Assembly: GCA_028280285.1 (NCBI GenBank)
Contig: JANQMA010000017.1
Span: 64,993 to 128,992, forward strand
Direction: 5' to 3'
Origin: Candidatus Omnitrophota bacterium
GTDB taxonomy: Bacteria; Omnitrophota; Gorgyraeia; Zapsychrales; Zapsychraceae
Length of the DNA stretch: 64,000 nt
The number at the start of each line of letters is the position of its first letter. The first letter of the stretch is position 1. This document shows positions 33,100-50,405 of this stretch, piece by piece. Under the pieces are notes generated by a model. That model saw only the letters and a program-made list of their open reading frames with translations. It was not told the origin of the DNA and did not search any database. A program made the translations under genes and the position numbers.

Positions 33100-33182
33100 G
33101 GTGTTCGGTGTTCAGAGTTCGGTGTTCTGTCAGAACACTGAACACAATTAATTACTTTACTCATCTAGAACACAGAACACTC
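33100..33182. repeat. Dyad repeat of GGTGTTCGGTG / GAACACAGAACAC words immediately 3' of the tRNA
   Basis: GGTGTTCGGTGTTCAGAGTTCGGTGTTCTGTCAGAACACTGAACAC ... GAACACAGAACACTC. Confidence 0.6.
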
Positions 33183-33200
33183 AATAATCATGGAGCATGG

Positions 33201-33980
33201 ATGATACACAAGACTGTCTTAATAACAGGCGCATCAAGCGGTATCGGCGAAGCGTTAGCATGGAAATATGCCGAAGAAGGCTATCGGCTTATTCTTATCG
33301 CCCGGCGAGAGGAGAGGCTTGTGATCTTAAAGCAGGATATTGAAAAAAAATATGGAGGCCATGTTTTCAATATTTCTTGTGATTTAAGTCTGCCGGATAG
33401 CGTGCATAATATTTACAATATTGTTAAGAAAGAAAATATAGCCGTCGATGTGCTTATTAATAATGCCGGTTTTGGCCACTATGGTGCTTTTTGTGAATCT
33501 TCTGTTGAAACAATGACGAAAATGATACAAGTTAATACAATGGCCCTTATGCAGTTAACGCATTATTTTGCGGCCGATATGGTCAAACGGCAAAGCGGGC
33601 ATATTATCAATGTCGGCTCAATTGTCGGTTTTGTGCCGGGGCCGTTTATGGCCATGTATTATGCGACTAAGGCATTTGTCTTGTCATTCTCAGAAGCCTT
33701 AAGTCAGGAACTTGCTTCTAAAAATGTGTGTGTGACTGTCTTTTGTCCGGGGCCTGTCGCATCGGAGTTTAAACAAGTGGCTTACGGGGTTGATCAAAAA
33801 CACGCGATGCATAACACTATACCGTCAAGCGCTAAAGCTGCTGATACGATATTTTATGCCATGCAGAAAAAACAGGTTATTAATCTGTTTACTTTTTCGA
33901 ATCATATTATTTTATTGGTGTTACGCTTTTTACCCCGTGCGGTTATCCGTCGTTTATGGCGGATAGCGCGCAAAAAATAG
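33201..33980 (+). CDS. Short-chain dehydrogenase/reductase (SDR) family oxidoreductase
   Basis: TGASSGIG cofactor motif, NNAG, catalytic YxxxK (YYATKAF); ORF-track start 33108 overlaps tRNA and repeat so ATG 33201 (MIHKTVLITGASSGIG) used. Confidence 0.8.
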   Translation: MIHKTVLITGASSGIGEALAWKYAEEGYRLILIARREERLVILKQDIEKKYGGHVFNISCDLSLPDSVHNIYNIVKKENIAVDVLINNAGFGHYGAFCESSVETMTKMIQVNTMALMQLTHYFAADMVKRQSGHIINVGSIVGFVPGPFMAMYYATKAFVLSFSEALSQELASKNVCVTVFCPGPVASEFKQVAYGVDQKHAMHNTIPSSAKAADTIFYAMQKKQVINLFTFSNHIILLVLRFLPRAVIRRLWRIARKK

Positions 33981-33995
33981 TGATTGGTGACATGA

Positions 33996-34129
33996 GATAA
34001 ATGGTGTCGGATAAATGGTGTCAGATCTCACTAAAGCATTGTCTACCAAATGTTTATGGATAAATGGTTCGGTTCATCTAAATGTAATGTAACTTGTTGG
34101 AGTAAGGTTGCTTGTGAGATCTGACATCA
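33996..34129. repeat. Upstream region of the radical SAM gene with GATAAATGGTGTC direct repeats and a 12-bp inverted repeat (GTCAGATCTCAC / GTGAGATCTGAC)
   Basis: GATAAATGG occurs at ~33997, 34010, 34059; inverted 12-mers at 34020-34031 and 34115-34126. Confidence 0.4.
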
Positions 34130-35496
34130 ATTTTTCCACATCTATTAAATGCTTATCGGTTGCGCTTGTCAATGTGGCTAATCACCATAAAGAATACGGA
34201 GTGCATAAAGATTTAAACGGTGGGTTTGGCACCGCTGATGATTTTGATGGATTTCTGGGTAGCTCCTTTATTAGGTTTTTTAAAAAGCATACTGTTTCGC
34301 TGCCAATTATTAGTTTCGCGCATTTGCAGAGCATCTTTAAACAAAAAGATATGCGAGTTAGTTATATTGAAGAAAATTATTGTGATGAAAATAATTTTGA
34401 TATTGTGCTTATTTATGGCAGCATGGTTGATCACCGTCATGAAAATCAAGTGTGCCGCCTATGGAAGAAAAAAATGCCGCAAGCGCGTGTCGGTATTTTT
34501 GGAAACTTTGCGAAAGTGTGTCCTGAATTTTTCGATGCAGCCGATTTTATCATTAGTGGTGAAGCTGAACATTTTTTCGATCAGGAGTTTAAGAGCCTTG
34601 ATCAGCTTAAAGGCTATGTGCAGGTTCGCGGCATAACCAATTATGATTCTTTACCGGTACCGGATTTAAGCGGATTTCCCATTGATAGTTATCAATATTC
34701 GGTTTCACGCACCTCCAAACGTTTTATTCCTTACCAGAGCAGTAAAGGCTGCCCTTACAGCTGCAGTTATTATTGTACGTATGGAAAATTTCAGGGCCCC
34801 AAAATACGCCAGCGCTCGGCGAAGAATGTGGTTAGGGATCTCATTGAACTTAAAGAAAAATATAATATCGAACGCGTACAGTTTCGTGATCCTGTCTTTG
34901 GCCTTCAAAAAGGTTTTATTGAAGATCTTTGTGAAACGGTCAAAGAAAACAACCTTGATATTATTTGGGGGATGGAGACACGCGCGGACTTGTTAAACGA
35001 AGAAAATTTACGTCTTATGCGTGCGGCTGGCTTAAGACGTGTTAACATTGGCATTGAAACGACGAATGCTAATATTGCCAAAACCAATAAAAGGCCTTTG
35101 ATTAAAGAAACTCATCAAGAAAATGTTGTTCGGTGGTGCAAAGAGTTGGGTATTACTGTTGCGGCATTTTATGTGTTTGGTTTGGATGGTGATACACCAG
35201 AGTCGATTGAACAAACAGTTGATTACGCGATTAAGCTTAATACGCCGATTGCGCGGTTTGCCGTGGCGACACCTTATCCGGGAACCGATTTTTATAAGAA
35301 ATTAAAACAGGAAGATCGTCTTCTCATCGATGATTTAGAAAAATACACGCAGTTTAATCTTGTCTTTAAACATACCCACTTATCACCGCAAGATATTAAG
35401 AAGTTTCTAGGCAAGGCTTATCGTCGCTATTATTTGCGGATCAATTATTGGATTATGATGTTGCGCGGTTATGTGCGGCGACTACTTTTTAAATAA
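34108..35496 (+). CDS. B12-binding-domain radical SAM protein (start uncertain)
   Basis: CX3CX2C radical SAM motif (GCPYSCSYYC) preceded by a Rossmann-like B12-binding-type region (DIVLIYGSMVD...VGIFGNFA); ORF-track TTG start lies in an inverted repeat. Confidence 0.6.
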   Translation: MLVRSDINFSTSIKCLSVALVNVANHHKEYGVHKDLNGGFGTADDFDGFLGSSFIRFFKKHTVSLPIISFAHLQSIFKQKDMRVSYIEENYCDENNFDIVLIYGSMVDHRHENQVCRLWKKKMPQARVGIFGNFAKVCPEFFDAADFIISGEAEHFFDQEFKSLDQLKGYVQVRGITNYDSLPVPDLSGFPIDSYQYSVSRTSKRFIPYQSSKGCPYSCSYYCTYGKFQGPKIRQRSAKNVVRDLIELKEKYNIERVQFRDPVFGLQKGFIEDLCETVKENNLDIIWGMETRADLLNEENLRLMRAAGLRRVNIGIETTNANIAKTNKRPLIKETHQENVVRWCKELGITVAAFYVFGLDGDTPESIEQTVDYAIKLNTPIARFAVATPYPGTDFYKKLKQEDRLLIDDLEKYTQFNLVFKHTHLSPQDIKKFLGKAYRRYYLRINYWIMMLRGYVRRLLFK

Positions 35497-37224
35497 CCCT
35501 ACGTGGATGCCTAATCCTGAGTCCTCATCATCAAAAGGCTCCATTTTAAATCCATAACGTAAATCATTTTCTTTTCTTAAAGCTATGGCCGGATGAGGGT
35601 GCGGTGTACATGGCAACAGCCCGTCCCAACATTGTTCGGAATTAATAGGGACGTAGAGAAGCGTGCCGTCATTGGTTTTAAATTCTCTATATTCGACCGT
35701 TGGTGTAGGATCAAATGTTTGTCTGATTGACCAGTCTTTATTATTTATGACGACATTAAGCATTAAAGCGAACGATACACTTATAAAAATGATCGATTTT
35801 TGTTTGTCATTGAGATGTTTGTTTTCGTCAACGGACAACACAAGTGTTGTTAGCGCCAGGATCCAAAAGAGTGCGCCGGCGTAGCGCGGTTCGGGGATAG
35901 TGACAAGCCAAAGGACAAGCGTGATCAGTGCAATGATGATGATAAGCCAAACCTTGCGTTTGGTAAAATCATAGGCGCGTCCAAAGAAATGGCAGCAAGC
36001 GAAGATAAACGCGGAAACGCAAAAAATAAATAGCGGCATTTGAAAATAAAAAGGATACATCGACAAATTGCGTTTAAGCCAACCGCCGACCCAGTCCCAC
36101 TTGCCTAGCACCTCTTGCCACGGCACATTAGGCATTAATATCCAGCTTTCAAGCCAGTTATTAAGGTTCATTGCACTGGCGGCGGGCACGCGCCAGTCGA
36201 CGTCAAATCCGAACCATGGTTTCGGAAAAAACGGATAGCCTGAAAGAATAATGTTGCGGATCATCCACGGCACGGCACTTAAGATGAATAAAATAATCAT
36301 ATAACGGTATATGTTTTTGTTTCTTTTGATCAAAAGAACAACACCGAGCGACACAAAACCAAAAAGCATAAAGCCTGACTTAACCAGGCATCCGATCATG
36401 ATAAGAAATATAATGGTATAGATTTGTGTGTTATCGGCGGTGTTGTTTTCCAAAAGCATTAACAGCTTCAATGTGATTAAAATGCCGATAAGAAAAACGG
36501 CAAAATCCGGTGTCGGATTAGAAATCGGAATGTTGGCATTTAAAAACAAATAAAAGACAACAGGAATAAAAAGCAAGGCGACACGGTGATGAATGTAATA
36601 AGGTTTATTTTTGTTTGTAAAAAAGTGATTTATCAGTTGGGCTAAGGTGATGAAGATAAAAAGCCCGTTAATGATATGATGTGATTTATTAAGCAGTGGT
36701 CCGAACTCAAGCATGGCCGGATAAAGAAAAAAAGTTCCGGCATTAAAGGCGAGCCGGCTGTTAATAAGTGCAAGGCCTGGCACAATCGGATATTCGGCGC
36801 TGAAGCGAACGGTATTTAAATGATAAAGCCCGCTGTCATAGGACTCGGGAGGCCCTAATGACCCATTAGCGACCCAAATTCCGGTTAATATAAGAAAAGC
36901 AGATAACACCGGCTGGTTTTGCACAAAGGCCATTAGATTCTTGAACAGTACGGCACGGAATATCAAGATATTGACTATCGCGACCATAGAAAGAACGATC
37001 AAGGGTATACCCGAGGCTTTGAAGAAAAAATGCCAAGTTTGAAGAAAAATAAGGCTCGCCCCAAACCCTATCCAAAAGCAGTCCAAAACCGACTGCCGGG
37101 CAGCCTCATGATTTCCTTGCATGAATAGTGAGCGGACACCAAGCCCCACGCCGACAAAGCATAACCCAAGCCAGATCCAGGCCGCCAGGATAATACCTGT
37201 TGTTTCTATATAGATATTAAGCAT
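35482..37224 (-). CDS. Large polytopic membrane protein (>=12 TM helices), possible glycan polymerase/glycosyltransferase-like, function unknown
   Basis: Hydrophobicity pattern throughout; only - strand gene of the cluster; C-terminal soluble ~100 aa region. Confidence 0.5.
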   Translation of the reverse strand: MLNIYIETTGIILAAWIWLGLCFVGVGLGVRSLFMQGNHEAARQSVLDCFWIGFGASLIFLQTWHFFFKASGIPLIVLSMVAIVNILIFRAVLFKNLMAFVQNQPVLSAFLILTGIWVANGSLGPPESYDSGLYHLNTVRFSAEYPIVPGLALINSRLAFNAGTFFLYPAMLEFGPLLNKSHHIINGLFIFITLAQLINHFFTNKNKPYYIHHRVALLFIPVVFYLFLNANIPISNPTPDFAVFLIGILITLKLLMLLENNTADNTQIYTIIFLIMIGCLVKSGFMLFGFVSLGVVLLIKRNKNIYRYMIILFILSAVPWMIRNIILSGYPFFPKPWFGFDVDWRVPAASAMNLNNWLESWILMPNVPWQEVLGKWDWVGGWLKRNLSMYPFYFQMPLFIFCVSAFIFACCHFFGRAYDFTKRKVWLIIIIALITLVLWLVTIPEPRYAGALFWILALTTLVLSVDENKHLNDKQKSIIFISVSFALMLNVVINNKDWSIRQTFDPTPTVEYREFKTNDGTLLYVPINSEQCWDGLLPCTPHPHPAIALRKENDLRYGFKMEPFDDEDSGLGIHVGLFKK

Positions 37225-37286
37225 GGCTGCATTATAAACGAATAAATAGTGCCAGGCACGAATTAAATAATGTATAATCAGACTCC

Positions 37287-38618
37287 ATGAAACAATTTAC
37301 CCCGTCTAAACTTTTTTTTATTCTTACAAGTAGCATCTTAATTCTCGGGACAGCTTTCGGTTATGGGCTTTACCATGCGCATAAGGACACGCGGGTGTTT
37401 AGAGGTATTAGATATGTGATGAAGTCAGTGAAAGGTGTCTTTGCCGAAGCGCCTACGTTAACGGGGGGCCGTCCGCACCATTTTCTTCAGCCTTCACGTC
37501 ACGCGGGAAGTAATGTCACGATTAATAAAGAAGAAGCCGAAAAGACAGATCAAATACTGCTCGCGGGATTTTTTGACAATTCTAATGAAATACGCCTCAT
37601 TAAACGCGACGGCACTGTTGTTAACCGTTGGCCGGTTACTTTTTCCCGAATTTTTCCAGATACTCGTCATATGGGTCTCAAAGCGCCACAAACGGATTGG
37701 AATATTGATATTCATGGTGTCTACGCCTTACGTGACGGATCAGTGGTGTTTAACTTTGAATACGGCGGACTTGTTAAACTTGATCGCTGCAACAATGTTG
37801 TCTGGGCCTTACCTGTGCTGTCGCATCATTCTGTCGAGCCGAGTCAAGACGGGGGATTATGGGTGCCGGGGCAAAGACGCTACACAGGAGATGAACAATC
37901 TATGTTTCCGCCGTTTACAACACCACTCAGTGAAGATACGATTATGAAAATTGCCGCAAATGGGGCAATAAAAAAAGAAATTTCTGTTCCGGAACTATTC
38001 TATAAAAATAACCTGGTATATCTACTTACGTCGACGGGAGAAAGTTTTTACAATAATCTGCAATGGGATGAAGAAATTGTGCATCTCAATAAAATAGAAG
38101 AATTGCCGCGCAACCTGGCGCAGGATTTTTCTTTATTTGATTCCGGAGATCTGCTTTTGTCCCTGCGCAATTACAACATGCTGTTGGTGGTTGACCCGGA
38201 AACGGAAACAATAAAATGGTGGACAGTCGGGCCTTGGGTCCGTCAGCATGATCCTTCCTTTAAAGCCGGAGGGACTATTGTCGTTTTTAATAATAATATT
38301 TACAGAGAAGAAACAACGACGAATTTAGTCAGTAACATTATAGAAATCGATCCCCGGACGAATGATTATAAAGTTATTTACGGCGGTAAAAAGGGCCAAG
38401 AGATGTTGACACGGCTCAGAGGAAAACAAGAGGTAACAATAAAAGGAGGTTTGCTCATCACGGAGTTTGAGGCCGGCCGTGCCTTTGAAACAAATGCCCG
38501 AGGCGATGTTATTTGGGAATTTATTAATCGTTATGATAAAAACAACATTGCAGAAATCACCGAAGCACGCATATATGCTGAAAATTATTTTAACGTCGAG
38601 GACTGGTCATGTATGTAA
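37287..38618 (+). CDS. Membrane-anchored beta-propeller protein, arylsulfotransferase (ASST)-like
   Basis: N-terminal TM helix then repeated beta-strand blades; weak resemblance to the ASST family; low-confidence call. Confidence 0.35.
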   Translation: MKQFTPSKLFFILTSSILILGTAFGYGLYHAHKDTRVFRGIRYVMKSVKGVFAEAPTLTGGRPHHFLQPSRHAGSNVTINKEEAEKTDQILLAGFFDNSNEIRLIKRDGTVVNRWPVTFSRIFPDTRHMGLKAPQTDWNIDIHGVYALRDGSVVFNFEYGGLVKLDRCNNVVWALPVLSHHSVEPSQDGGLWVPGQRRYTGDEQSMFPPFTTPLSEDTIMKIAANGAIKKEISVPELFYKNNLVYLLTSTGESFYNNLQWDEEIVHLNKIEELPRNLAQDFSLFDSGDLLLSLRNYNMLLVVDPETETIKWWTVGPWVRQHDPSFKAGGTIVVFNNNIYREETTTNLVSNIIEIDPRTNDYKVIYGGKKGQEMLTRLRGKQEVTIKGGLLITEFEAGRAFETNARGDVIWEFINRYDKNNIAEITEARIYAENYFNVEDWSCM

Positions 38619-38836
38619 ATATATTATCACTTTCATTTTTTTTAACGTTTATAGTAACAAGTAATGCCTGGGCCTATATTGGGCCGGGAGTTGGATTAAG
38701 TGCGATCGGTGTTGTGATTGCTTTATTAGCAGCGGGTATTCTTTTTATTCTTGGCTTTGTGTGGTATCCGGTTAAACGATTGCTGCTTAAAATGAAAAAA
38801 AATAATGCAAAGAATAAAAAAGACAATGAACTATGA
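38609..38836 (+). CDS. Small membrane protein (75 aa)
   Basis: Signal/TM segments; overlaps neighbours by 10 and 4 nt (translational coupling). Confidence 0.4.
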   Translation: MYVNILSLSFFLTFIVTSNAWAYIGPGVGLSAIGVVIALLAAGILFILGFVWYPVKRLLLKMKKNNAKNKKDNEL

Positions 38837-40284
38837 TAATAATCACTGCTCTTTTCAGTATCTTCGTTTTTCTTTTTTCATGTCATGTCCTTAGAATCCT
38901 ACCGGTAGGAAACAGTGTTTTCAATGTTATAAATGCTTCTTTAGAAGTAGTGTTTGATAAAAATATAGACGATGATGTCAAAGAAAAAGAATTACAGAAA
39001 CAGTCCCTTAGATTATTCGGTATTTTTGGTTCACTTGTTGTGCGTATCGGGCTTGCATTATTATTTTCTTTTGCGCCTGTTTGGGGTATGAGCCAGTTAG
39101 GGTATGTTGTTATTGATGATGTTGTTTCGTTTTTGTTTCGTTGGGATGTGATTGTTACCGGGTCTGTTATTGTAATAGCCGGACTTTATCTTTTAAGAAA
39201 ATCATACACGTCTGTAAACTCAGCGCAGATTAATTATTCTCCTGTAGACCGCATGCTTCATTGCATTGCCTTTTCGGACGCGAAGTTACAATTAACGGCC
39301 GTTGATATCGAGCATAAATTGTTTAGAAAGTATTATCAAAATATAAGTTTAAATCCACCTATTTTTATCACATCTTTGCCGCGTGCCGGCACAACCCTTA
39401 TGCTTGAGATGCTGCATTGTTTTGAGGGTTTAGCGACGAATACTTATCGTGACATGCCGTTTTTACTGTCGCCTGTTTTATGGGACCGTTTGAGCGGCCC
39501 TTTTAGAATAAGTACGGCTCAGGCTGAGCGTGCGCATGGTGATGGCATGCGTATTGGACATGATAGTCCCGAGGCTTTTGACGAGGTTATTTGGCGTAAA
39601 TTTTGGTCCGAGAAATACGGCGAAAGAAATATTGGATTGTGGAGTCCGCAAGACACAAAAAAAGATGCTGTTAGTTTTTTTAATGATTATATGAAAAAAA
39701 TCAGTTTTTTGCGTCGGCCAGGGGGCGTTTCAGGTGTTAGATATATTTCCAAAAATAATGCAAACATAGCAAGAATTGACTTGATTAAAGACATGTTTCC
39801 GGAATCAGAAATATTGGTTATGATCCGCAATCCCTTTGAGCAGGCGCGCTCTTTATTGAGGCAGCACAAAAATTTTACCAAAATTCATGCGGAAGAGCCC
39901 TTTGTTTGCCGCTATATGGCGCATATCGGCCATTATGAGTTTGGACAATTACACCGGCCGATCGCCTTTCCGGGAATCGAAAAGCTGCTTGGCGGCCGGG
40001 ATCGAGAATCGCTTGATTACTGGCTGGCTTATTGGATTGCTGCTTTTGCCTATGTTTTGGAAAGAAAAGACAAGGTTCGCTTAGTGGATTATGAAGCCAT
40101 GTGTTTGGATGGCACGGGGGTACTAACAGACCTTTGTTCCCGGTTGGCTATTTTTGATAAGCAGGCTATCAGTCAAGCGGCAGGTATGATTAAGGTGTCT
40201 TCACCGATTAAGGCCGATGAATCGGGCTTTTGCCCTGATTTGTCTGCCCGCGCCAAAGAAATCCATGCGTCTTTAATGGGGTAG
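38833..40284 (+). CDS. Membrane-anchored sulfotransferase family protein
   Basis: FITSLPRAGTTLMLEML resembles the 5'-PSB P-loop (PKxGTT) of sulfotransferases; N-terminal TM helices. Confidence 0.55.
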   Translation: MIIITALFSIFVFLFSCHVLRILPVGNSVFNVINASLEVVFDKNIDDDVKEKELQKQSLRLFGIFGSLVVRIGLALLFSFAPVWGMSQLGYVVIDDVVSFLFRWDVIVTGSVIVIAGLYLLRKSYTSVNSAQINYSPVDRMLHCIAFSDAKLQLTAVDIEHKLFRKYYQNISLNPPIFITSLPRAGTTLMLEMLHCFEGLATNTYRDMPFLLSPVLWDRLSGPFRISTAQAERAHGDGMRIGHDSPEAFDEVIWRKFWSEKYGERNIGLWSPQDTKKDAVSFFNDYMKKISFLRRPGGVSGVRYISKNNANIARIDLIKDMFPESEILVMIRNPFEQARSLLRQHKNFTKIHAEEPFVCRYMAHIGHYEFGQLHRPIAFPGIEKLLGGRDRESLDYWLAYWIAAFAYVLERKDKVRLVDYEAMCLDGTGVLTDLCSRLAIFDKQAISQAAGMIKVSSPIKADESGFCPDLSARAKEIHASLMG

Positions 40285-41065: not shown

Positions 41066-42424
41066 ATGAGAAAATTATTTTTCGCGGCTTTAGCAGTAGT
41101 GTTTATGGCAGGTACTGCATCAGCAGCCGTTCAAAACGTTAAGGTAAGCGGGTCGGTTGATTCGACTTATGTTAACAGAAAAAACTTTGATTTAGGTGAG
41201 GATGGTGGTTCTGATCACCGTAAACAAAGTTCTTTTATTACGCAAACGTCATTGAGAGTTGATGCAGATCTAACAGACAATGTGTCTGCAACAATTGCTC
41301 TTTTAAATGAAAGAGCTTGGGAATCATCTCCAGGTTCTACAGCAACAGACATTGAGCTTCAATTGGCTTTTGCTGTATTGCGTGAATTCCTTTATTCACC
41401 ATTAACATTGACAGTGGGTCGTCAGGAATTCATTTTTGGTAATGGATTCATTATGGACTCAGCTGCTGGTAGTGGTGATTCAGCGATTTCTAGTGTTGCT
41501 AGTGACCTTTCTAAGAGATTTGCTCTTGATGCGGTTCGTGCAACATTAGATTACAACCCACTAACACTTGATCTTGTATACTTCCGTGATACAGACGGTG
41601 CTAGTGCTGGTTTCTTTACCGGTAGTTCAACAAGCATCGATGTCTATGGTATTAATGCCAACTATGCGTTGGGTGATACTATGAACTCAATCATCGAAGC
41701 ATACTACTGGAAAAAATGGGACAGAACTGACTCAAACAGCGCGACTGACCAAGAAGATAAGCTTCATGTATATGGTCTTCGCGGAAGCACTAACCCGATT
41801 GAAGGGTTAAGCGTTTCAGCTGAGTGGGCCCATCAAAGTGGTGAATCAGATGATGGTTCTGACCAAGCAAACAAAAATGCTAACGCAGTACAGTTAATTG
41901 CAAACTATCAAGTACCTGTGTTAACTGAATACAATCCTGTGCTTACGTATAGCTTCACTAAGTACTCAGGTGATGTAACAACAGCATCTGATGACCACAG
42001 AGATTCCGGTTGGGATTCATTCTACAATGACCAACTAGAAGGTATTGTGTATACATTATTCTCTAAAACAAACCTACTTGTTCATGATGTTTATCTTGAA
42101 ACAACGCCAATGGAAGATGTAACAGCTGGTTTTAGATGGCAAGGTTTGTGGCTAGATAAGTCATGGGAAGATGGCTCATCAGCGTCTTTTACAATCGGAT
42201 CTAACCATGGTGCTGGTACAGATACATTCACATCAGCTGCTGGTGAAATCGATGAAAAAGAAAGTTACTTAGGTAGTGAGTTTGATTTCGATCTAACGTA
42301 TGACTATACGGAAGACGTTCAAATCGGAACTACTTTAGGTTACTTCTTCCCGGGTGATTTCTTTACAGAAGGAAATGACCTAACAGCAAAACAATGGTTG
42401 GTTAACTTAAACGTTGCATTCTAA
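41066..42424 (+). CDS. Outer-membrane beta-barrel protein (porin-like)
   Basis: Signal peptide ending ASAAVQ, alternating amphipathic beta-strands, aromatic C-terminal residue (..LNVAF). Confidence 0.6.
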   Translation: MRKLFFAALAVVFMAGTASAAVQNVKVSGSVDSTYVNRKNFDLGEDGGSDHRKQSSFITQTSLRVDADLTDNVSATIALLNERAWESSPGSTATDIELQLAFAVLREFLYSPLTLTVGRQEFIFGNGFIMDSAAGSGDSAISSVASDLSKRFALDAVRATLDYNPLTLDLVYFRDTDGASAGFFTGSSTSIDVYGINANYALGDTMNSIIEAYYWKKWDRTDSNSATDQEDKLHVYGLRGSTNPIEGLSVSAEWAHQSGESDDGSDQANKNANAVQLIANYQVPVLTEYNPVLTYSFTKYSGDVTTASDDHRDSGWDSFYNDQLEGIVYTLFSKTNLLVHDVYLETTPMEDVTAGFRWQGLWLDKSWEDGSSASFTIGSNHGAGTDTFTSAAGEIDEKESYLGSEFDFDLTYDYTEDVQIGTTLGYFFPGDFFTEGNDLTAKQWLVNLNVAF

Positions 42425-42834: not shown

Positions 42835-43413
42835 ATGACCAGAGATGAAATTTATGACCATCTTGCGCAAGTGTATTTAGGTAAACGCAAGAAAGGTGAA
42901 GATAAAAAGACAGAAAACAGATTTAACGCATGGCTTTTGATTAATATATTAATCACTGTCATCATTTTCGCCAGTGCATTTTATGGATTAACGGCGTTTT
43001 TTACGCATAATAATTCGCTCTTAAAAGATAATGTGATTTATTCGCTTCACCGGGGTGTGGTAACCATGGATTACCGGTTTGACGAAGGATATCCACCGGT
43101 TAAGTCATTTGCGCTGTCGATCCCCGGGATTGATACCTCCAGTTACAGTAATCTGGAGTTTTCGATTCGGGCTCGGGAAGAAGGAACGCCAGGTATTGTT
43201 AAGGTTGTGATCAAGAACATCCGCAACGAAGAATCGGCCTTTTATGTGCAGGGAGTGGATTACAAATGGCAAGAAATTGTGATTCCATTTACCGAATTTC
43301 AGAAAATCACCGATTGGTCACAAGTAACAGATGTGTCTTTTGTCCTTGAAGCATGGAATGTCGATAAACGCAAAGGACTTATATTAATCGACAATATTGG
43401 GTTTTCAAGCTGA
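42835..43413 (+). CDS. Membrane-anchored protein with C-terminal beta-sandwich (carbohydrate-binding-module-like) domain, unknown function
   Basis: Single TM helix after basic N-terminus, then beta-rich region; no specific family recognised. Confidence 0.35.
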   Translation: MTRDEIYDHLAQVYLGKRKKGEDKKTENRFNAWLLINILITVIIFASAFYGLTAFFTHNNSLLKDNVIYSLHRGVVTMDYRFDEGYPPVKSFALSIPGIDTSSYSNLEFSIRAREEGTPGIVKVVIKNIRNEESAFYVQGVDYKWQEIVIPFTEFQKITDWSQVTDVSFVLEAWNVDKRKGLILIDNIGFSS

Positions 43414-43488: not shown

Positions 43489-44775
43489 ATGAGAATTATA
43501 TCGATAGCCAATCAAAAAGGCGGTTGTGGTAAAACGACCACGGCTATTAATCTTGCTTCTGCTTTGGGGCAGAACGGCAAGAGGGTTTTATTAATCGACC
43601 TTGATCCTCAGGCACATGCATCACTCGGATTGGACATCGAAAGTCAAGATAGTATTTATAATGTCATTTCGAATTTAACACCGCGTAAATTAAAGCTCGA
43701 AAATATCATCCGTCGGGTGGAAGACACGTTTGACATTGTTCCGTCCAATATCCTCGTCGGTACACTTGAGCAGGAGCTAGCCGATGAAATTGGACGTGAA
43801 CTCAAACTTAAGGAAGTCATCGAGCCGGTTTGCGAGCGTTATGATTATGTTTTGATCGATTGCGCGCCAAGTCTTGGTATTTTAACGGTGAATGCGTTAC
43901 GTTTAAGTGATGAATTGATTGTTCCGGTTGAAACATCACGTTTTTCGATGCAAGGGGTTGTTCATTTAACCGATATCGTGAATTTGGTTAAGGAACGTCT
44001 AGGCCACGAACTGAGAACACGCATTTTGGTTACGATGTTTGACTCGCGCCTGCGTCATTCTTTTACGATGCTTGATACCTTTAAAGACGCATTTGGGGAA
44101 AAAATTTATGACACGATTGTCCATGTCAATGTTAAGCTCAAAGAAGCAGCCGTTAATGGGAAATCTGTTTCATCATTCGATAAATATTGCCGGGGCTCTA
44201 AAGATTATTATAGCCTTGCCAAAGAGATTATTTCTCTTGAAGCGAAAAAACAAGATGCGGCGCTTGATCAACTCTCTGCTCAAGAAGTAGAAAAAGTCTT
44301 TCGTTCACCAACGTTTGCTTCAACCTCTCGTGATACAAAAGTAGAGTCAGTCTCTGTTAGAGAAGAAAAGGCGCCTGAGGAAAAAGAAACCTCGACGGTC
44401 AATCCTATCGAAAAAGAAGAAGAGACGATTGAGGCAGAAGAAATTTCTCTTGCCCCTGTCTCTGATAAACTGCAAGAAGTTGTTAGCCGGGAAGTCAAAG
44501 ATTTATTTTCTGTTTCTTTTGCCATTAATGCCCCCGGAGCCAAATCAGTTTATGTGACGGGCAGTTTTAATGACTGGTCGTTGGATGATTCTTGCCGCCT
44601 CAAAGATCGTGATGGGGAAGGCAATTGGGAAACAAAGATTGATCTTCGCCCGGGCACGTATAAATATCAATTCATTATCGACGGTGTATGGCAGGAAGAT
44701 CCTAATAATGCGCAAAAAGAACGCAATTCTTTTGGCGATATTAACTCATTGATTGAAGTCGGAGCTTCTTCTTAA
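43489..44775 (+). CDS. ParA/MinD-family ATPase fused to a C-terminal AMPK-beta/CBM48-like glycogen-binding domain
   Basis: Deviant Walker A KGGCGKTT, ParA core (LLIDLDPQA); acidic/Ser-rich linker; C-terminal FSVSFAINAPGAKSVYVTGSFNDWS..GEGNWETKIDLRPGTYKYQFIIDGVW matches CBM48/AMPK1_CBM fold signature. Confidence 0.7.
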   Translation: MRIISIANQKGGCGKTTTAINLASALGQNGKRVLLIDLDPQAHASLGLDIESQDSIYNVISNLTPRKLKLENIIRRVEDTFDIVPSNILVGTLEQELADEIGRELKLKEVIEPVCERYDYVLIDCAPSLGILTVNALRLSDELIVPVETSRFSMQGVVHLTDIVNLVKERLGHELRTRILVTMFDSRLRHSFTMLDTFKDAFGEKIYDTIVHVNVKLKEAAVNGKSVSSFDKYCRGSKDYYSLAKEIISLEAKKQDAALDQLSAQEVEKVFRSPTFASTSRDTKVESVSVREEKAPEEKETSTVNPIEKEEETIEAEEISLAPVSDKLQEVVSREVKDLFSVSFAINAPGAKSVYVTGSFNDWSLDDSCRLKDRDGEGNWETKIDLRPGTYKYQFIIDGVWQEDPNNAQKERNSFGDINSLIEVGASS

Positions 44776-44799: not shown

Positions 44800-45126
44800 A
44801 TGGTAACTAAAAAAAGTAAAAGCAGTACTCCTGATCCGCAAAGTAAAATCTTCGCACTCATCGGTTACCTTTCGATTTTATGCATTATTCCCCTTGTGAC
44901 TAAACATGATGATGAGTTTGTCCTCTATCATAGCAAGCAAGGACTTGTTTTGTTCTTACTGCAAGTAGCTGCGTTTGTGCTGCATATTATGGTTGGCTAT
45001 TGGCTTTTAAGACTGGTCTTGTTTGTCTCGGGTGTGAGCGCCTTTATTGGAATGATTTTTGTCTTGAAAGGTGAGAGGGTCACTATACCGCTTATCTCCC
45101 GGTTGGCCCAAAAATTGGAAATATAG
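44800..45126 (+). CDS. Small membrane protein (3 TM)
   Basis: Hydrophobic segments; 2 nt from next gene. Confidence 0.4.
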   Translation: MVTKKSKSSTPDPQSKIFALIGYLSILCIIPLVTKHDDEFVLYHSKQGLVLFLLQVAAFVLHIMVGYWLLRLVLFVSGVSAFIGMIFVLKGERVTIPLISRLAQKLEI

Positions 45127-45128
45127 CC

Positions 45129-45608
45129 ATGCCTATCGTTGATGTCCTCCTGGATTCACTCATCAAAAGCCTTCAGAAAATAAAAAAGTCTCATCAACAA
45201 AACAGAAAAAAAAGACAACAAGCTAAAGCCAAGGCGGCAAAAAAGAAGACCGCTCGGAAAAAAACGGCAAAAAAGAAGGCTGCCAAAAAGGTAACTAAAA
45301 AGACAGCGAAAAAGGTAGTTAAAAAATCAAAGCCAAAAGTAAAACCGAAAAAGACGAATGAAAAGCTAATTGGCGAAATTACCCATTATTTTTCCAAAAT
45401 CAAGGTAATTGTCATAAAGATAAGTGCTGCAACACTTAAGGTAGGGGATAAAATCCATATCAAAGGGGCAACGAGCGATTTTACGCAAACTATCAAATCA
45501 ATGCAGATTGAAAGTAAGGATGTCAAAAGCGCGCGTAAGGGGCAGGTTATCGGCCTCAAGGTCACTAAGCAGGCACGGGTGGGAGATAACGTTTTCCTAA
45601 AAAACTAG
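45129..45608 (+). CDS. Lysine/alanine-rich (histone H1-like) protein with C-terminal small beta-barrel domain
   Basis: AKAKAAKKKTARKKTAKKKAAKK repeats; C-terminal VGDKIHIKG..GQVIGLKV..GDNVFL resembles EF-Tu domain-2-like barrels. Confidence 0.4.
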   Translation: MPIVDVLLDSLIKSLQKIKKSHQQNRKKRQQAKAKAAKKKTARKKTAKKKAAKKVTKKTAKKVVKKSKPKVKPKKTNEKLIGEITHYFSKIKVIVIKISAATLKVGDKIHIKGATSDFTQTIKSMQIESKDVKSARKGQVIGLKVTKQARVGDNVFLKN

Positions 45609-45692: not shown

Positions 45693-48600
45693 ATGTCACT
45701 CAAAACTCTCCAAAATCTTATTTTTCAGCAGTTAAGTGATGCCTCTAGGAAGCTTTCCAATAAATCAGGCCAGAATATTGTCGAATATGTTTTGATTCTC
45801 GCAACCGTAGTAACAACGGCTGTTGTGACGTTGGGGCCGGAAGGTATTGTGACTAAAGAAGTTGAGCGGGTTCCAGGCCTAACGATTGACAAGGCCCAGT
45901 GTGTGGCGCGTCAAACATGTTTTAGAGAGGATAACTGTGTCCTGGAGGCTGTCTGCGGCAACAGATGTTGTGAACCTAGTGAAAGTAAGACCAGCTGCCC
46001 TGAAGATTGTGAGGTAGAGAATGAAGAAAGTCATTACTGCGGCGATGGTATTAAGGATCCTGGAGAGACGTGCGGTAATTGCCCGCAAGATATTCCCGAG
46101 TGTTCTTGCGGAGATAATCAATGTGATAAGAATCTTGGAGAAGAGGAAACATGTCCACAGGATTGTACAGTCCCTGAATCATGCGGCGATAATATTTGTG
46201 ATGAAGGGGAGGATTGCAATAATTGTGAGGGAGATTGCGGTTCGTGTGCGTTCTCATGTGATATTGGTTCGCGTTTTTGTAACGGCGGTTGTATTGTGGA
46301 TGGTTCAGCCGGTGAAGGGGAAGAATGTTGCGAATCCGGTAATTGCGCGTCGGGGATTTGTGTAGATAACGTATGCCAAGAAATCTTCAGCTGTACCGGG
46401 GATATTCCGGGCAATACTACCCTATGCCCAGGTGCCGGCAACCCAACAGAAGATACTGCGATTACAATGGTTGAGAGCTGTGGATTGGCCCAGTGTGAGT
46501 ATAGATGTAATCCTGGTGATAGTGATATCTGTTCAGTGTCGGGCATTCCAGAATGCATTGCTGATGGTTCGGTGCCGGATACCGAAGAGTGTTGTGAGTC
46601 ACGTAACTGTTCAGCTGCCTCCGCCTGTGTTGAAGGGCTTTGCCAACCACTACCCGGAGAATGTGTAGGGACACCTTTGGATGGGTGGGATTTATGCTCA
46701 GGGGACGATAGTCCAGAGACTGTGACTTCTATTACTTTGGTGGCTGCCTGCGGTACGCCTGATTGTGAATATACTTGTGATACCGAAAGCTATAGATTTT
46801 GTGATGCAGAGTGTGTGCCTAATCGGTCGCTGCCGCAAGATGCGGTTTGTTGTGAAAATATTAATTGTGTGTCAAATAGTTGTATAGACGGAATCTGTCA
46901 GCCTCTAGCGGGTTCTTGTGGTAATGGCATTATTGAAGAAGGTGAGGTTTGCGACGGAATAGAGGGACTGGAGACTCCTGGCGTTTCTTATTTTGATGGA
47001 GGTAATTGGTATGTTGAAGTATTAGGAGATTGCCAAAATTCTTGTACACAAAGATTTAGATCTACAACGTGTACCGGTGCACCGGATAACGCATTGTGGT
47101 GGGATAATTCAGCTTTCCTTGAGTTTTGTGATAATGGAGTAGGGTCTGGATGTAACAATTGGACAGTGACGGAAAATTCTGCCGGAGAACCTTTGATTAA
47201 CGAAAGTACGCCGGTTTTTTCTGAAACAGATATTGGGAATCGTACATGTGATTATTTTTGTGCGGATGGCACACATTATTGTTTGAATGGATGTATTCCC
47301 AAGAACGATTTAGGAGATGGTTCTGCGTGTTGTGATGATATTAATTGTCAATCGGGTAATTGTCAAAAACAAGAAGGTGAAGATGCAGGGGTTTGTGCAG
47401 TGTCGCTTCCGGCCTGTACCGGTGCTGAGCCGGACAATGCAGAGATTTGTGCAGGCGACGACAGCCCTGCCGTAGATACACTCATTAGTTTAGTTGAGTC
47501 TTGTGGAGTTGATGACTGTGAATATATATGTAATGATGAGTCTGATTTTTGTTCGGGAGAATGTGTTGTCAAAGGTTCACGGTTAGAAAACGCACAGTGC
47601 TGTTCCGACGAGAATTGTGCATCCAATGATTGTGATATTGCAAGCGGCACTTGCCGCCCTGATACACGCTGTACAATTTGTGGGACTGTTTATAATCAAG
47701 GTGAAGAGATTTATAAAATAGAAACATGTATAGCCGGGCCTCCGGATTCTCCGGTTGAGTTGACCTTTTCTTGTGGAGATCCAATACCTGATATTGCCGG
47801 ACTCGGCGCATCACGCAGTGAACTTTGTGCGGGCATAACACCCGCAAGTCCTGAACCGGATACGATTAATTATCTTTGGGAAGGCAATGTTATTACCACG
47901 ACTCCTAGTACAGATATTAACAGTGTGTGTCCTAATGAAATTGCGACTTGTGGCAATGACACTTTGGACTCGGGTGAGGAGTGCGATGATGGTAATACGC
48001 GCGGAGGTGATGGGTGCAGTACAAGTTGCTCGTGGGAGACGAAAAATTTTATATGTTTGCCAACCCCGGAAGGAAACCAATATGTTTTTAATCAAGCCGA
48101 AAGTTATACGCAAACATGTGTTGCATCTAATGGGAATGACTGTACCCAGTGGGATTATCCGGGCGATGTGGTAACGGAGTATAATCCTGTCCCTTCAGTA
48201 ACAGCTTGCCGTTTCACTTGTACAGAAGGACTTGTTTGGACAGGAAACGGCTGTGGGGAACAATGCGAAGATATTAGTGATGGAGCAGCTTGCGGATCTG
48301 CACCACATTGCAGTTGGGATGCCGGTGCCGGAATATGTGTTGATGCGGGGTTACCGATTTGCGCGAACGGAGTAGTTGAAACAGGAGAGGAATGTGATGA
48401 TGGGAATAAGGACAACAAAGATGGATGTAGTAAAAATTGTGATTGGGAAACAAAGAATTTTGCATGCAGCGCGAAGCCTGGTGGTAATGAAACACAAATG
48501 AATACGGTTTTTGCCTATATGCAGACATGTGTTGCTTCTAATGGAGTCACATGTACTGACTGGATTCCGCCGGATGACCCGACGACCGAATATGATGAGA

Positions 48601-49970
48601 CACCATCTTCTACTTCATGTCAGTTTAATTGTAGTGCATCGTATGTCTGGGATAGTACGGCATGTGTCTTAGGCGAAGTTTTATGCGGGAATGGTAGTGT
48701 TGACAGTGGGGAAGAGTGCGATGACGGCAATACACAAGATGGAGATGGTTGTAGTAAAACGTGCGGATGGGAGACGCGGATACATATATGCCCTGATGCT
48801 TTAGCTGATGAAACGACTATGGTTTTTAATACGGTTCTGGCCTATGTACAGACATGTACTGCATCCAATGGAGTCGCGTGCACAAGCTGGAATCCACCGG
48901 ATGACCCGACGACCGAATATAACACTACGCCGGCGACAGATTCCTGCCGTTTCCGCTGTGCCGATAACTACATATGGAATAACGCGGATTGTATTCCTGA
49001 GGCAGTTTGTGGGGACAATCTCATCGAAGGTGCTGAAGAGTGTGATGACGGTAATCAAAATAGTGGAGATGGGTGTTCGGTGAATTGTAATTGGGAGACA
49101 AAAAACTTCCTCTGTAATCCAGCGCCGGATGAGGCAGGTACGCAGGCTAATACGGTGTATGCGTATAACCAAATTTGTATGGCATCCGACGGGACGGCAT
49201 GTACCAGCTGGAATCCACCGGATGATCCGACAACCGAATACAATGAAACGCCTTCAACGACATCGTGTCAATATATATGCGCAGATGGTTACAATCGGGA
49301 AGGTTCACAGTGTGTTCCGGTCGATTGCGGTAATGGACGAATAGATCCTGCTGGGTGTACGGATTCGTGTTTATTTAGATCGGGGCATGATTCAAATTGT
49401 AATGCTATCAGGGATGAGGCGGTATGTAACGGAGCGGCCAACTGTCAATGGAACGCGATTGATGTTAATGCGGGGAGTTATTGTGCAGGATTTAGCAATC
49501 CTCTTGACTGTTTAAATGAGCCGTATGAAAAATGTACATGGTCTTTGCTTTTGGAGGCTTCAGAATGTATCCCGCGCGTCGAAGCCCAAGAAACATTTGA
49601 TGCAAGTAGTTGTGGTTACCAGGTGCAATGTGACCGGCTGCAAGGAGAAGTGAGTTGTTCTTTGGCCAGTGCGCATTGTATTTGGGATGATTGTATCGAA
49701 GAGTGTGATGGAGGCGTTAATTGTACCAGTTGCAAGTGTAATGCGGGGACATATCCAACTTCTCCACCGTCGAGCTCATGCGCCAATTCCTGTTTGACAG
49801 TGCGCAATGAATTTGGAGATTGTTGTCCTTCCGGACGGCCGCTTGTGACAGATTGTTCAGGACACAGTGTATGCATACCATGTGTCCAGCCGGGTGAAAC
49901 ATGGACTGGGAATTGCAGTAATCATGGGCCTTTAAGCGGCATTGAAGGCTGTGAAGTGAAACTTAATTAA
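45693..49970 (+). CDS. 1425-aa cysteine-rich surface protein with Flp/Tad-type prepilin-like N-terminus and tandem Myxococcus-type cysteine-rich repeats (TIGR02232/DUF4215-like)
   Basis: N-terminus ...NKSG/QNIVEYVLILATVVTTAVVTL fits G/xxxxEY class III signal; four tandem units CGNGxxExGEECDDGNxxxGDGCSxxCxWETKNFxC; Cys content ~12%. Confidence 0.75.
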   Translation: MSLKTLQNLIFQQLSDASRKLSNKSGQNIVEYVLILATVVTTAVVTLGPEGIVTKEVERVPGLTIDKAQCVARQTCFREDNCVLEAVCGNRCCEPSESKTSCPEDCEVENEESHYCGDGIKDPGETCGNCPQDIPECSCGDNQCDKNLGEEETCPQDCTVPESCGDNICDEGEDCNNCEGDCGSCAFSCDIGSRFCNGGCIVDGSAGEGEECCESGNCASGICVDNVCQEIFSCTGDIPGNTTLCPGAGNPTEDTAITMVESCGLAQCEYRCNPGDSDICSVSGIPECIADGSVPDTEECCESRNCSAASACVEGLCQPLPGECVGTPLDGWDLCSGDDSPETVTSITLVAACGTPDCEYTCDTESYRFCDAECVPNRSLPQDAVCCENINCVSNSCIDGICQPLAGSCGNGIIEEGEVCDGIEGLETPGVSYFDGGNWYVEVLGDCQNSCTQRFRSTTCTGAPDNALWWDNSAFLEFCDNGVGSGCNNWTVTENSAGEPLINESTPVFSETDIGNRTCDYFCADGTHYCLNGCIPKNDLGDGSACCDDINCQSGNCQKQEGEDAGVCAVSLPACTGAEPDNAEICAGDDSPAVDTLISLVESCGVDDCEYICNDESDFCSGECVVKGSRLENAQCCSDENCASNDCDIASGTCRPDTRCTICGTVYNQGEEIYKIETCIAGPPDSPVELTFSCGDPIPDIAGLGASRSELCAGITPASPEPDTINYLWEGNVITTTPSTDINSVCPNEIATCGNDTLDSGEECDDGNTRGGDGCSTSCSWETKNFICLPTPEGNQYVFNQAESYTQTCVASNGNDCTQWDYPGDVVTEYNPVPSVTACRFTCTEGLVWTGNGCGEQCEDISDGAACGSAPHCSWDAGAGICVDAGLPICANGVVETGEECDDGNKDNKDGCSKNCDWETKNFACSAKPGGNETQMNTVFAYMQTCVASNGVTCTDWIPPDDPTTEYDETPSSTSCQFNCSASYVWDSTACVLGEVLCGNGSVDSGEECDDGNTQDGDGCSKTCGWETRIHICPDALADETTMVFNTVLAYVQTCTASNGVACTSWNPPDDPTTEYNTTPATDSCRFRCADNYIWNNADCIPEAVCGDNLIEGAEECDDGNQNSGDGCSVNCNWETKNFLCNPAPDEAGTQANTVYAYNQICMASDGTACTSWNPPDDPTTEYNETPSTTSCQYICADGYNREGSQCVPVDCGNGRIDPAGCTDSCLFRSGHDSNCNAIRDEAVCNGAANCQWNAIDVNAGSYCAGFSNPLDCLNEPYEKCTWSLLLEASECIPRVEAQETFDASSCGYQVQCDRLQGEVSCSLASAHCIWDDCIEECDGGVNCTSCKCNAGTYPTSPPSSSCANSCLTVRNEFGDCCPSGRPLVTDCSGHSVCIPCVQPGETWTGNCSNHGPLSGIEGCEVKLN

Positions 49971-49979
49971 ATACATATT

Positions 49980-50405
49980 ATGCCTAAACGCAGCGAAAAT
50001 GACTGTCATCTTATCCGCCGTTATCTTATCTGGTGTTATAAAACCACAAAAGAAGATCTTGACCGCATTGATCGATATTATACGCAACTCGATGTGGATG
50101 CATTTTTGCTGAAAACTCTTCGTCGAGGCAAAGATTATAAACGCAAAAAAGATGAGTATTACAGAGGGTTGGTTGATGATTTCGAAAAATACATGCAGAA
50201 GAAAAAAGATAATGTTGATCAGAAAAAGTTTAAAGATGAAAAGTGTAAAGAGTTATCATCTGAGTATTTATATGTGAAAAACAGATTTGATGCGATTGAG
50301 CGAGCTATTGTTGATTTTCTCGGGGAGGAAGAGCTTGATCATATTTGCACACTTTATGAAGAAGAAATGACTTCCCGCATCCTTGCCGCGCGTGAACATT
50401 CTTAA
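49980..50405 (+). CDS. Hypothetical protein (141 aa, charged)
   Basis: ORF only. Confidence 0.35.
   Translation: MPKRSENDCHLIRRYLIWCYKTTKEDLDRIDRYYTQLDVDAFLLKTLRRGKDYKRKKDEYYRGLVDDFEKYMQKKKDNVDQKKFKDEKCKELSSEYLYVKNRFDAIERAIVDFLGEEELDHICTLYEEEMTSRILAAREHS

Follow-up and report, generated by a model that had tools for sequence, protein, structure and literature searches.

ParA/MinD ATPases are general spatial organizers that act on chromosomes, plasmids, carboxysomes, chemoreceptor arrays, flagella and the divisome. Why would one of them carry, in the same polypeptide, a carbohydrate-binding module of the kind found in AMPK beta subunits? The question is raised by a gene in a 64-kb stretch of DNA from a Candidatus Omnitrophota bacterium (contig JANQMA010000017.1), which we refer to as the window. 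The gene (43489..44775, plus strand) is an ATG-to-stop open reading frame (ORF) of 428 codons plus stop, and its product consists of a ParA/Soj-type ATPase with a deviant Walker A motif, followed by a linker and a C-terminal CBM48/AMPK-beta-type module. An earlier note on this DNA had proposed this combination, and it was borne out: the ORF is exact and both halves score above their Pfam cut-offs, namely AAA_31 over residues 1-175 (E 1.3e-54, 185 bits vs a cut-off of 27), AMPK1_CBM (PF16561) over residues 350-426 (E 2.2e-15, 57.1 bits vs a gathering cut-off of 26.8) and CBM_48 (PF02922, 25.6 bits vs a cut-off of 22.4).

The fusion protein is a 100% match to database protein P0001, and its full-length homologs, retrieved from 5.8 billion proteins, share 60-78% identity with it. 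The best 120 of these homologs, with the window protein as the reference, supply the conservation counts given for the fusion below. Both PF13614 and PF16561 match every one of them, and those with a source name all come from Candidatus Omnitrophota. In public resources (JGI, NCBI) the homologs are labeled only as “AAA family ATPase” or “chromosome partitioning protein”. Since each half passes its curated thresholds and hundreds of independent sequences share the whole architecture, the fusion is far beyond chance. Mean identity to the window protein is 79% in the ATPase, 74% in the carbohydrate-binding module (CBM) and 22% in the linker. Neither a signal peptide nor a transmembrane segment was found in the fusion protein, so the CBM is expected to face the cytoplasm.

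The ATPase domain, the CBM48 module and the linker

The ATPase domain (residues 1-250; 43489..44238, plus strand), which the Pfam CbiA model spans from residue 4 to residue 227, retains all the motifs of its class. The deviant Walker A motif KGGCGKT occupies residues 10-16 (nt 43516-43536, plus strand; NQKGGCGKTT at residues 8-17), and its signature lysine K10, together with K15 and T16, is invariant in 119/120 homologs. Two aspartates of the DLD motif at residues 37-39 (D37 and D39 of DLDPQ, Walker A') and the Walker B residue D124 (LIDCAP) are present in 120/120 and align with the same residues of Soj. From these intact catalytic residues, ATP-dependent dimerization and ATPase activity are predicted. 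The best match of the first 260 residues among PDB sequences is the ParA family protein 8ray (E 3.5e-49), with further matches to Soj from T. thermophilus (1wcv, E 8e-40) and H. pylori (E 3e-35), so that its nearest solved relatives are chromosomal ParA/Soj proteins that bind the nucleoid; identity of this half to B. subtilis Soj is approximately 39.5%.

A set of basic residues (R187, R189, K216, K218, K232 and R235) bears on DNA binding. The invariant R187, located in TMFDSRLRH, aligns with R189 of B. subtilis Soj, which is needed for non-specific DNA binding. In H. pylori Soj, the DNA-contact lysines are K199, K227, K230 and K247. The counterpart of K230, K216, is invariant in the fusion; the positions of K199, K227 and K247 are occupied by F, V and Y, respectively, and are adjoined by invariant R189, H190, K218, K232 and R235. 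Nucleoid-type DNA binding by the ATPase domain is put forward as plausible only.

The same domain departs from canonical Soj in other respects. It scores 109.8 bits with the NCBIfam equivalog model for ParA_partition (NF041546), below the cut-off of 180, and alignments show that segments near-invariant in canonical Soj differ (PQAHAS vs PQGNAT; ETSRFSMQG vs QCEYYALEG). The sub-equivalog score and the divergent segments therefore fit a distinct subfamily with its own partner. Nor is the protein a MinD: the MinD model TIGR01968 gives 49 bits against a cut-off of 212.9, and no membrane-targeting helix was found after the ATPase, the sequence beyond residue 250 being unconserved linker and then the CBM.

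The CBM48/AMPK-beta-type module lies at residues 341-426 (44509..44766, plus strand). When the C-terminal 109 residues were compared with PDB sequences, the glycogen-binding domains of AMPK beta1 and beta2 were retrieved at E ~2e-9, and lower-ranked matches included pullulanase, Sip2, LSF1, alpha-amylases and GlgB. The cyclodextrin contacts of rat AMPK beta1, as known from work on 1Z0M, are W100, K126, W133, L146 and N150. In the alignment with AMPK beta1 (1z0m/1z0n) they correspond to W363, Q394, W401, F415 and N419, which constitute the putative sugar site and occur in 120, 119, 120, 118 and 120 of the 120 homologs, respectively. Thus, both tryptophans and the asparagine are identical to AMPK beta1, and the two replacements (K to Q and L to F) are conservative and fixed; the ERNSFGDxNS loop of the CBM is likewise frozen across the homologs. 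In the most divergent member of the family (locus L159), the CBM keeps W, W and F and has an arginine at the K126 equivalent and an aspartate at the N150 equivalent.

Structure prediction agrees with this assignment. An AlphaFold2 model of the module has a predicted local distance difference test score (pLDDT) of 81, and a Foldseek search of PDB with this model returned solely alpha-glucan-binding CBM48 modules. The top matches were Sip2, the AMPK beta1/beta2 glycogen-binding domains, SEX4, a Bacteroides GH13 protein and branching enzymes, with query TM-scores of 0.5-0.62. The C-terminal domain is thus not a generic Ig fold, a possibility that the earlier note had considered: the structural matches are to CBM48 modules, and both stacking tryptophans and the asparagine are invariant. 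The nearest CBM relatives outside the fusion family share approximately 40% identity with the module; most occur in secreted proteins that contain 3-18 CBM48 copies in tandem, in some cases fused to a catalytic domain of the GH13 alpha-amylase or GH57 type. Glycogen is the only abundant alpha-glucan in the cytoplasm, where the CBM48 modules of bacterial GlgB and GlgX meet it, and it is presumably also the ligand of the module described here.

The two domains are joined by a variable, mostly acidic and probably disordered linker (residues 251-322; 44239..44454, plus strand). Its acidic character, already pointed out in the earlier note, holds across the homologs, where the linker ranges from 30 to 138 residues (median 71) and contains ~22% D/E vs 15% K/R. 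Directly N-terminal of the CBM, this otherwise free linker contains a conserved motif of 13 residues, P-[FML]-S-x-[KR]-M-[QKR]-E-[ILV]-[VI]-x-x-E (residues 323-335; 44455..44493, plus strand), which reads PVSDKLQEVVSRE in the window protein. Its best columns are S325 (114/120), M328 (114, plus L in 6) and E335 (112/120), and the motif may be an interaction helix. The divergent L159 protein (6636..7844 of its locus) retains it as KTKMQEMIKEH; the linker of that protein is Pro/Thr/Ala/His-rich, not acidic.

Distribution of the fusion and its gene neighborhood

How widespread is this architecture? We scanned one genome per GTDB species with two CBM-specific motifs, VTGSFNDW and KYQFI[VI]DG, and found the fusion in at least 220 species genomes, so its recurrence in related genomes, which the earlier note had left to be surveyed, extends to a fixed, phylum-wide family. 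With roughly 700 Omnitrophota species in GTDB R232 (bioRxiv 10.64898/2026.06.07.730766), this number makes the fusion widespread in the phylum. From the 220 species genomes 80 loci were kept, and these underlie all counts over 80 below; they are essentially all from Omnitrophota metagenome-assembled genomes (MAGs), a few of them with placeholder labels. ParA and CBM form a single ORF in 79/80 loci, the exception (L011) ending at a contig edge. As an independent control, we collected metagenome contigs using as bait not the CBM but the upstream neighbor, a membrane protein that we call TM192. The ParA-CBM gene follows TM192 in 43/43 metagenome loci with enough downstream sequence, even where the upstream neighbor is only 30% identical, and the ORF is continuous in 49/50, the exception (L125) being a frameshift within the ATPase. 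Having found one ORF in 79/80 and 49/50 independent loci, we rejected a gene-calling or assembly artefact.

A search with the CBM alone against 1.84 billion cluster representatives revealed ParA in 3 of the best 150 matches, all three being fragments of the fusion family; no ParA-CBM fusion outside the family was found among these best 150 CBM relatives. Because only fragments of its own family carry ParA among them, the sequences indicate that the fusion arose once and was fixed in Omnitrophota. One 3.8-kb contig with the fusion and TM192 (L006; JBLINE010000142.1) has been binned in a “Lysobacterales” MAG; the most likely reason is contamination of that bin by Omnitrophota sequence, not a horizontal transfer.

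The gene order around the fusion is conserved as well. Upstream it runs PPDK, sigma factor, periplasmic-binding protein, phosphoribosyltransferase, TPR protein of ~820 residues (825 in the window), Alginate_exp barrel, TM192 and ParA-CBM; from ParA-CBM on it continues with M108, Krich159, p141, rpsO, pnp, ftsK, rodZ and miaB. Median gaps are 22 nt from TM192 to ParA-CBM, -8 nt from ParA-CBM to M108 and 14 nt from M108 to Krich159, and these short intergenic distances define a four-gene core operon, TM192/ParA-CBM/M108/Krich159. A small membrane protein and a Lys-rich protein had been named as neighbors in the earlier note, and both are indeed found, at 44800..45126 (M108) and 45129..45608 (Krich159).

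TM192 (42835..43413, plus strand) lies upstream of ParA-CBM on the same strand in 73/80 loci. Its N-terminal peptide, which is cytoplasmic and invariant (EIYDHLAQVYLGK) and, as MTRDEIYDHLAQVYLGK, the best-conserved part of the protein, precedes a Lys-rich stretch, one transmembrane helix and a periplasmic CBM11/CBM4-like beta-jelly-roll. The family comprises 584 members of a uniform length of ~191 residues, annotated as “hypothetical proteins” and assigned to Omnitrophota wherever the source names an organism, save for one Lysobacterales entry. In the AlphaFold2 model (pLDDT 81) a short N-terminal helix and one long transmembrane helix precede the beta-jelly-roll, for which the top Foldseek match is CBM11 of C. 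thermocellum (6r31_A, E 8.7e-8), followed by CBM4, CBM16 and CBM28-type modules.

The two downstream partners, both on the plus strand, are of different kinds. M108 is a small polytopic membrane protein of 108 residues with weak similarity to DUF4870/MamF_MmsF (Pfam E 0.012). It is present in 72/80 genome loci, with its start overlapping the stop of ParA-CBM, and in 33/37 metagenome loci, and is missing in L159, where Krich159 directly follows ParA-CBM. Krich159 (159 residues, 71/80 loci) has a histone-H1-like, Lys-rich, disordered N-terminal half and a small C-terminal beta-barrel resembling domain 2 of EF-Tu, its GTP_EFTU_D2 match (E 2.4e-5) being below the cut-off. This barrel is homologous to the C-terminal domain of peptidase U32 and to stand-alone “translation elongation factor-like” proteins, which occur in many bacteria of the Candidate Phyla Radiation (CPR) and in DPANN archaea.

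Beyond the core operon, an outer-membrane beta-barrel of the Alginate_exp type (41066..42424, plus strand; PF13372 E 2.3e-11) is encoded upstream in 63/80 genome loci and 31/34 metagenome loci. Between the barrel gene and TM192 there are 290 nt in the median and more than 100 nt in every case; the barrel probably belongs to a separate transcription unit. On the other side, p141 (49980..50405, plus strand), an apparently helical cytoplasmic protein of 141 residues without a Pfam match, is found downstream of the operon in 42/80 loci. No glycosyltransferase or synthase gene, bcsA included, was found in the conserved block around the fusion.

Other features of the window are less conserved. Directly after the operon, a Cys-rich protein of 1,425 residues (45693..49970, plus strand), with homologs in 13/80 loci, contains many “CGNG..E.GEECDDGN...GDGCS..C.WE” repeats and matches DUF4215 weakly. 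Between the conserved TPR and porin genes lies an island of ~7 kb (33108..40284) with genes for adh_short, radical SAM, DUF8201 (minus strand), arylsulfotransferase, a 75-aa protein and Sulfotransfer_3, which we regard as a genome-specific sulfation cassette because it is absent from all 80 syntenic loci. There were no Rfam matches in the 64-kb window, and promoter-like and terminator-like sites occurred in it at chance level.

Possible functions of the fusion

What might such a protein do? The computed features that any explanation has to accommodate are the domain identities, the catalytic residues, the conservation of the sugar site, the fixation of the fusion, the operon structure and the lack of an adjacent ParB. 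Regarding the last of these, tblastn with a hand-entered sequence of B. subtilis Spo0J detected no ParB-like ORF in the window and 84 further loci (1.33 Mb in total), and no ParB appeared in the Pfam tables of neighbor genes. With no ParB-like ORF in 1.33 Mb around the gene, the fusion is an orphan ParA by context. A parallel tblastn search of the same 1.33 Mb with B. subtilis Soj, also entered by hand, detected no second ParA near the fusion except in one locus. There (L025, 11265..11951, from RIFCSPHIGHO2_02_FULL_50_17), a more distant ParA-like gene with 28% identity to B. subtilis Soj lies ~1.5 kb downstream of the fusion.

The explanation that we favor, tentatively and at somewhat less than even confidence, is that the protein is an Omnitrophota-specific orphan ParA with a built-in cargo-binding domain, which tethers glycogen particles to the nucleoid and distributes them on it. 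The ATP-bound N-terminal domain would form a sandwich dimer and bind the nucleoid non-specifically, and each dimer would project two CBM48 modules on flexible, mostly acidic, DNA-repelled linkers, allowing the modules to grip cytoplasmic alpha-glucan (glycogen) particles multivalently. Glycogen tethered to the nucleoid and spread over it would then be inherited by both daughters of ultra-small cells. ATP turnover, leading to release and redistribution, would probably be stimulated by an operon partner with a basic N-terminus. Candidates for this activator are TM192, through its invariant N-terminal peptide in the cytoplasm, and Krich159, through its Lys-rich tail. ParA-driven positioning or segregation of glycogen, as the earlier note had suggested, is plausible and is the leading model here.

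Is glycogen available to be positioned? No glycogen genes lie inside the 64-kb window, and the short Logan fragments that reach past its ends contain nothing of relevance. Glycogen synthesis genes were reported for most, not all, Omnitrophota MAGs from Ace Lake, Ca. Zapsychrus exili among them (PMC8542988). In our set, Ca. Zapsychrus exili carries the fusion (L054). A lack of alpha-glucan metabolism, which the earlier note had named as counter-evidence, is not indicated for the phylum by these reports. The window also contains a giant ORF of 5,272 residues (4362..20180, plus strand); such giants are typical of Omnitrophota, and a glycogen-synthase-like GT5 domain has been reported for some of them. 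We rejected a GT5 domain in this ORF, as neither half has a Pfam match at E <= 1e-3; being devoid of a Pfam domain, it offers no GT5 link to glycogen.

Several points weigh against nucleoid tethering of glycogen. Of the five sugar-contact residues of AMPK, two are replaced (K to Q and L to F), and the Foldseek TM-scores of 0.5-0.62, obtained with a model of pLDDT 81, are moderate. A few Omnitrophota MAGs were reported to have trehalose synthesis only and no glycogen synthesis (PMC8542988). That the protein binds DNA and glycogen, which partner activates it and what it does in the cell are all things that we infer from sequence. In addition, known ParA systems need a cargo-bound ATPase activator for movement; with nothing more than a cargo domain in cis, a static tether would result and not an activator-driven gradient. 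Finally, a pure nucleoid-glycogen model leaves the obligate membrane-protein partners, one of them with a periplasmic CBM-like domain, unexplained, and because of these partners envelope-linked alternatives stay alive.

A serious if unlikely alternative is that glycogen is sensed by this ParA rather than carried by it, following the logic of AMPK beta. The protein would have a role in chromosome or nucleoid organization or in the cell cycle, and the CBM48 would sequester or modulate it according to the glycogen load, thereby coupling the energy reserve to segregation or division. The closest relatives of the ATPase half are chromosomal ParA/Soj proteins, and its very strong conservation (79% mean identity) and the housekeeping neighborhood beside rpsO-pnp-ftsK-rodZ are what one would expect from such a role. 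The closest solved sequence relatives of the CBM are the regulatory glycogen-binding domains of AMPK beta, and neither a ParB nor, outside L025, a second ParA was seen in the sequences searched. However, ParB/parS is adjacent in 0/85 loci, the score stays below the ParA_partition cut-off (109.8 vs 180), and the changes in segments that are near-invariant in Soj suggest a different partner; the obligate membrane-protein partners are left unexplained by sensing, too.

A further alternative, which we hold to be quite unlikely overall, is that the fusion belongs to an envelope or polysaccharide machinery. In that case, it would be an ATPase like BcsQ or a Wzc-type P-loop scaffold, docked together with M108 on the N-terminal peptide of TM192 so as to order or place an envelope complex. 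Its CBM48 would hold a cytoplasmic glucan substrate or primer, while outside the polymer would be dealt with by the CBM11-like domain of TM192 together with the AlgE-like porin and the TPR protein. The adjacency of TM192 and ParA-CBM is obligate (43/43 with the independent bait, median gap 22 nt), the most conserved part of TM192 is the very peptide that faces the cytoplasm, and its extracytoplasmic domain is a CBM11/CBM4-like jelly-roll. The Alginate_exp porin and the 825-aa TPR protein lie upstream in conserved synteny, and the fusion resembles BcsQ over its full length, although below threshold (E 4e-19 with TIGR03371 and 1e-9 with Pfam CBP_BcsQ). Against this, the conserved block lacks a glycosyltransferase or synthase, the porin is ~290 nt away and never 100 nt or less, and the BcsQ score is 69 bits vs 157.85, with Soj-type matches being much stronger. 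Moreover, no single polymer obviously suits both modules, alpha-glucans being the ligands of CBM48 and beta-glucans those of CBM11 relatives.

We give little credence to a third alternative, in which the CBM48 fold has been repurposed and serves as an adaptor only, its ligand being something other than glucan or else a protein, such as one of the operon partners. CBM48-like sandwiches do act as adaptors in some non-carbohydrate contexts; the contact residues deviate from the canonical set at two of five positions, a protein-protein interface is hinted at by the conserved motif before the CBM, and the CBM region shows NCBIfam similarity to a type IX secretion system (T9SS) plug protein that is not glycogen-binding (E 1.6e-7). 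This is countered by the essentially invariant stacking tryptophans, loop aromatic and asparagine, by the frozen ERNSFGDxNS loop, by nearest relatives in starch-binding proteins linked to GH13 and GH57, and by top fold matches that are all glucan binders. As for an ordinary chromosome-partition Soj with a functionally neutral extra domain, the public names “chromosome partitioning protein” and “AAA family ATPase” and the best PDB matches (Soj/ParA) are in its favor, but it is very improbable, as no ParB is adjacent, the score is below the equivalog threshold, and a neutral appendage would not be expected to stay at 74% identity, with the residues of its ligand site unchanged, in at least 220 species.

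Relation to known systems and significance

The fusion belongs, by its sequence, to the ParA/MinD superfamily combined with CBM48, and it falls outside each of the canonical groups to which it was compared: ParABS-type Soj, MinD, BcsQ and McdA. Chromosomal ParA/Soj proteins of the small type Ib (1wcv, H. pylori 6iub/8jmj, B. subtilis) have the same ATPase fold and size and share ~40% identity with it, including the deviant Walker A motif with the signature lysine, Walker A' and Walker B, and the equivalents of R189 and K230 are kept. Unlike them, the fusion has no adjacent parB/parS, scores below the equivalog level and diverges at segments near-invariant in Soj, and unlike any described Soj it carries a C-terminal linker and a CBM48. 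In being an orphan ATPase encoded away from parB, it resembles McdA/McdB, ParC/ParP, PomXYZ, FlhG and MipZ, and its conserved neighbors probably specify the cargo. In McdA/B-type systems, however, the link to the cargo is a separate adaptor protein, whereas here the cargo-binding module would be present in cis. The match to McdA itself (6noo) is weak (58 bits over residues 1-172), and no carboxysome genes were found near the fusion.

In the ParA/MinD family, the gene neighborhood usually points to the cargo, and partners contact the ATPase via a positively charged, disordered N-terminus (PMC10241942). The operon candidates with basic N-termini match this general partner model (PMC10241942). 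A 2024 review of the family makes no mention of glycogen, storage granules or fusions.

On the side of the CBM, AMPK beta and Sip2 of SNF1 (1z0m, 2f15, 2qlv) are the best matches in both sequence and structure, and AMPK beta shares with the fusion the pattern “GSFN(N/D)W ... Y(K/Q)F.(V/I)DG.W ... (L/F)G..N”. In contrast to AMPK beta, the fusion has the changes K126 to Q and L146 to F, the module sits on a P-loop ATPase and not on a kinase scaffold, and the host is a bacterium. The concept of linking a storage granule to the nucleoid for inheritance has a precedent in PhaM of Ralstonia and PhaF of Pseudomonas, which tether polyhydroxybutyrate/polyhydroxyalkanoate (PHB/PHA) granules to the nucleoid via histone-H1-like, Lys-rich DNA-binding tails. 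A gene for an H1-like, Lys-rich protein is likewise part of the operon described here. PhaM and PhaF are unrelated in sequence, though, and they are passive tethers without an ATPase that act on a polyester and not on a glucan; compared with them, the tether proposed here would be ATP-regulated. Finally, BcsQ is also a ParA/MinD-fold ATPase with membrane partners and a polysaccharide association, and the fusion aligns with its family model over the full length, but the score is below the cut-off, no synthase gene is nearby, and BcsQ has no CBM.

We found no paper describing a ParA-CBM48 protein or a ParA-type system for glycogen, and two phylum-scale Omnitrophota papers do not mention glycogen, ParB or the fusion. 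To our knowledge, a separate adaptor supplies the cargo specificity in every described ParA/MinD case, and the known cargos do not include a storage granule made of polysaccharide. The operon may therefore represent, a possibility that we raise with appreciable doubt, the first dedicated positioning or partition system for a storage polysaccharide, in which a ParA would recognize glycogen directly and operon partners would link glycogen, nucleoid and envelope.

Two results concern annotation: the public name “chromosome partitioning protein” is corrected, and a four-gene operon conserved in Omnitrophota is defined, in which three genes have no known function. Although Omnitrophota are essentially uncultured, the hypothesis can be tested in vitro and in E. 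coli, since the protein is small and soluble and a standard assay is available for each of its halves. If it is true, it would add a new class of cargo to the ParA/MinD family, and cargo recognition could be built into the ATPase, an adaptor-less architecture new to this family. It would also provide a testable handle on how carbon reserves are inherited in ultra-small cells with very few granules. Taken together, the evidence suggests a known class of motor whose cargo specificity is new and built in, and whose partners are new as well.

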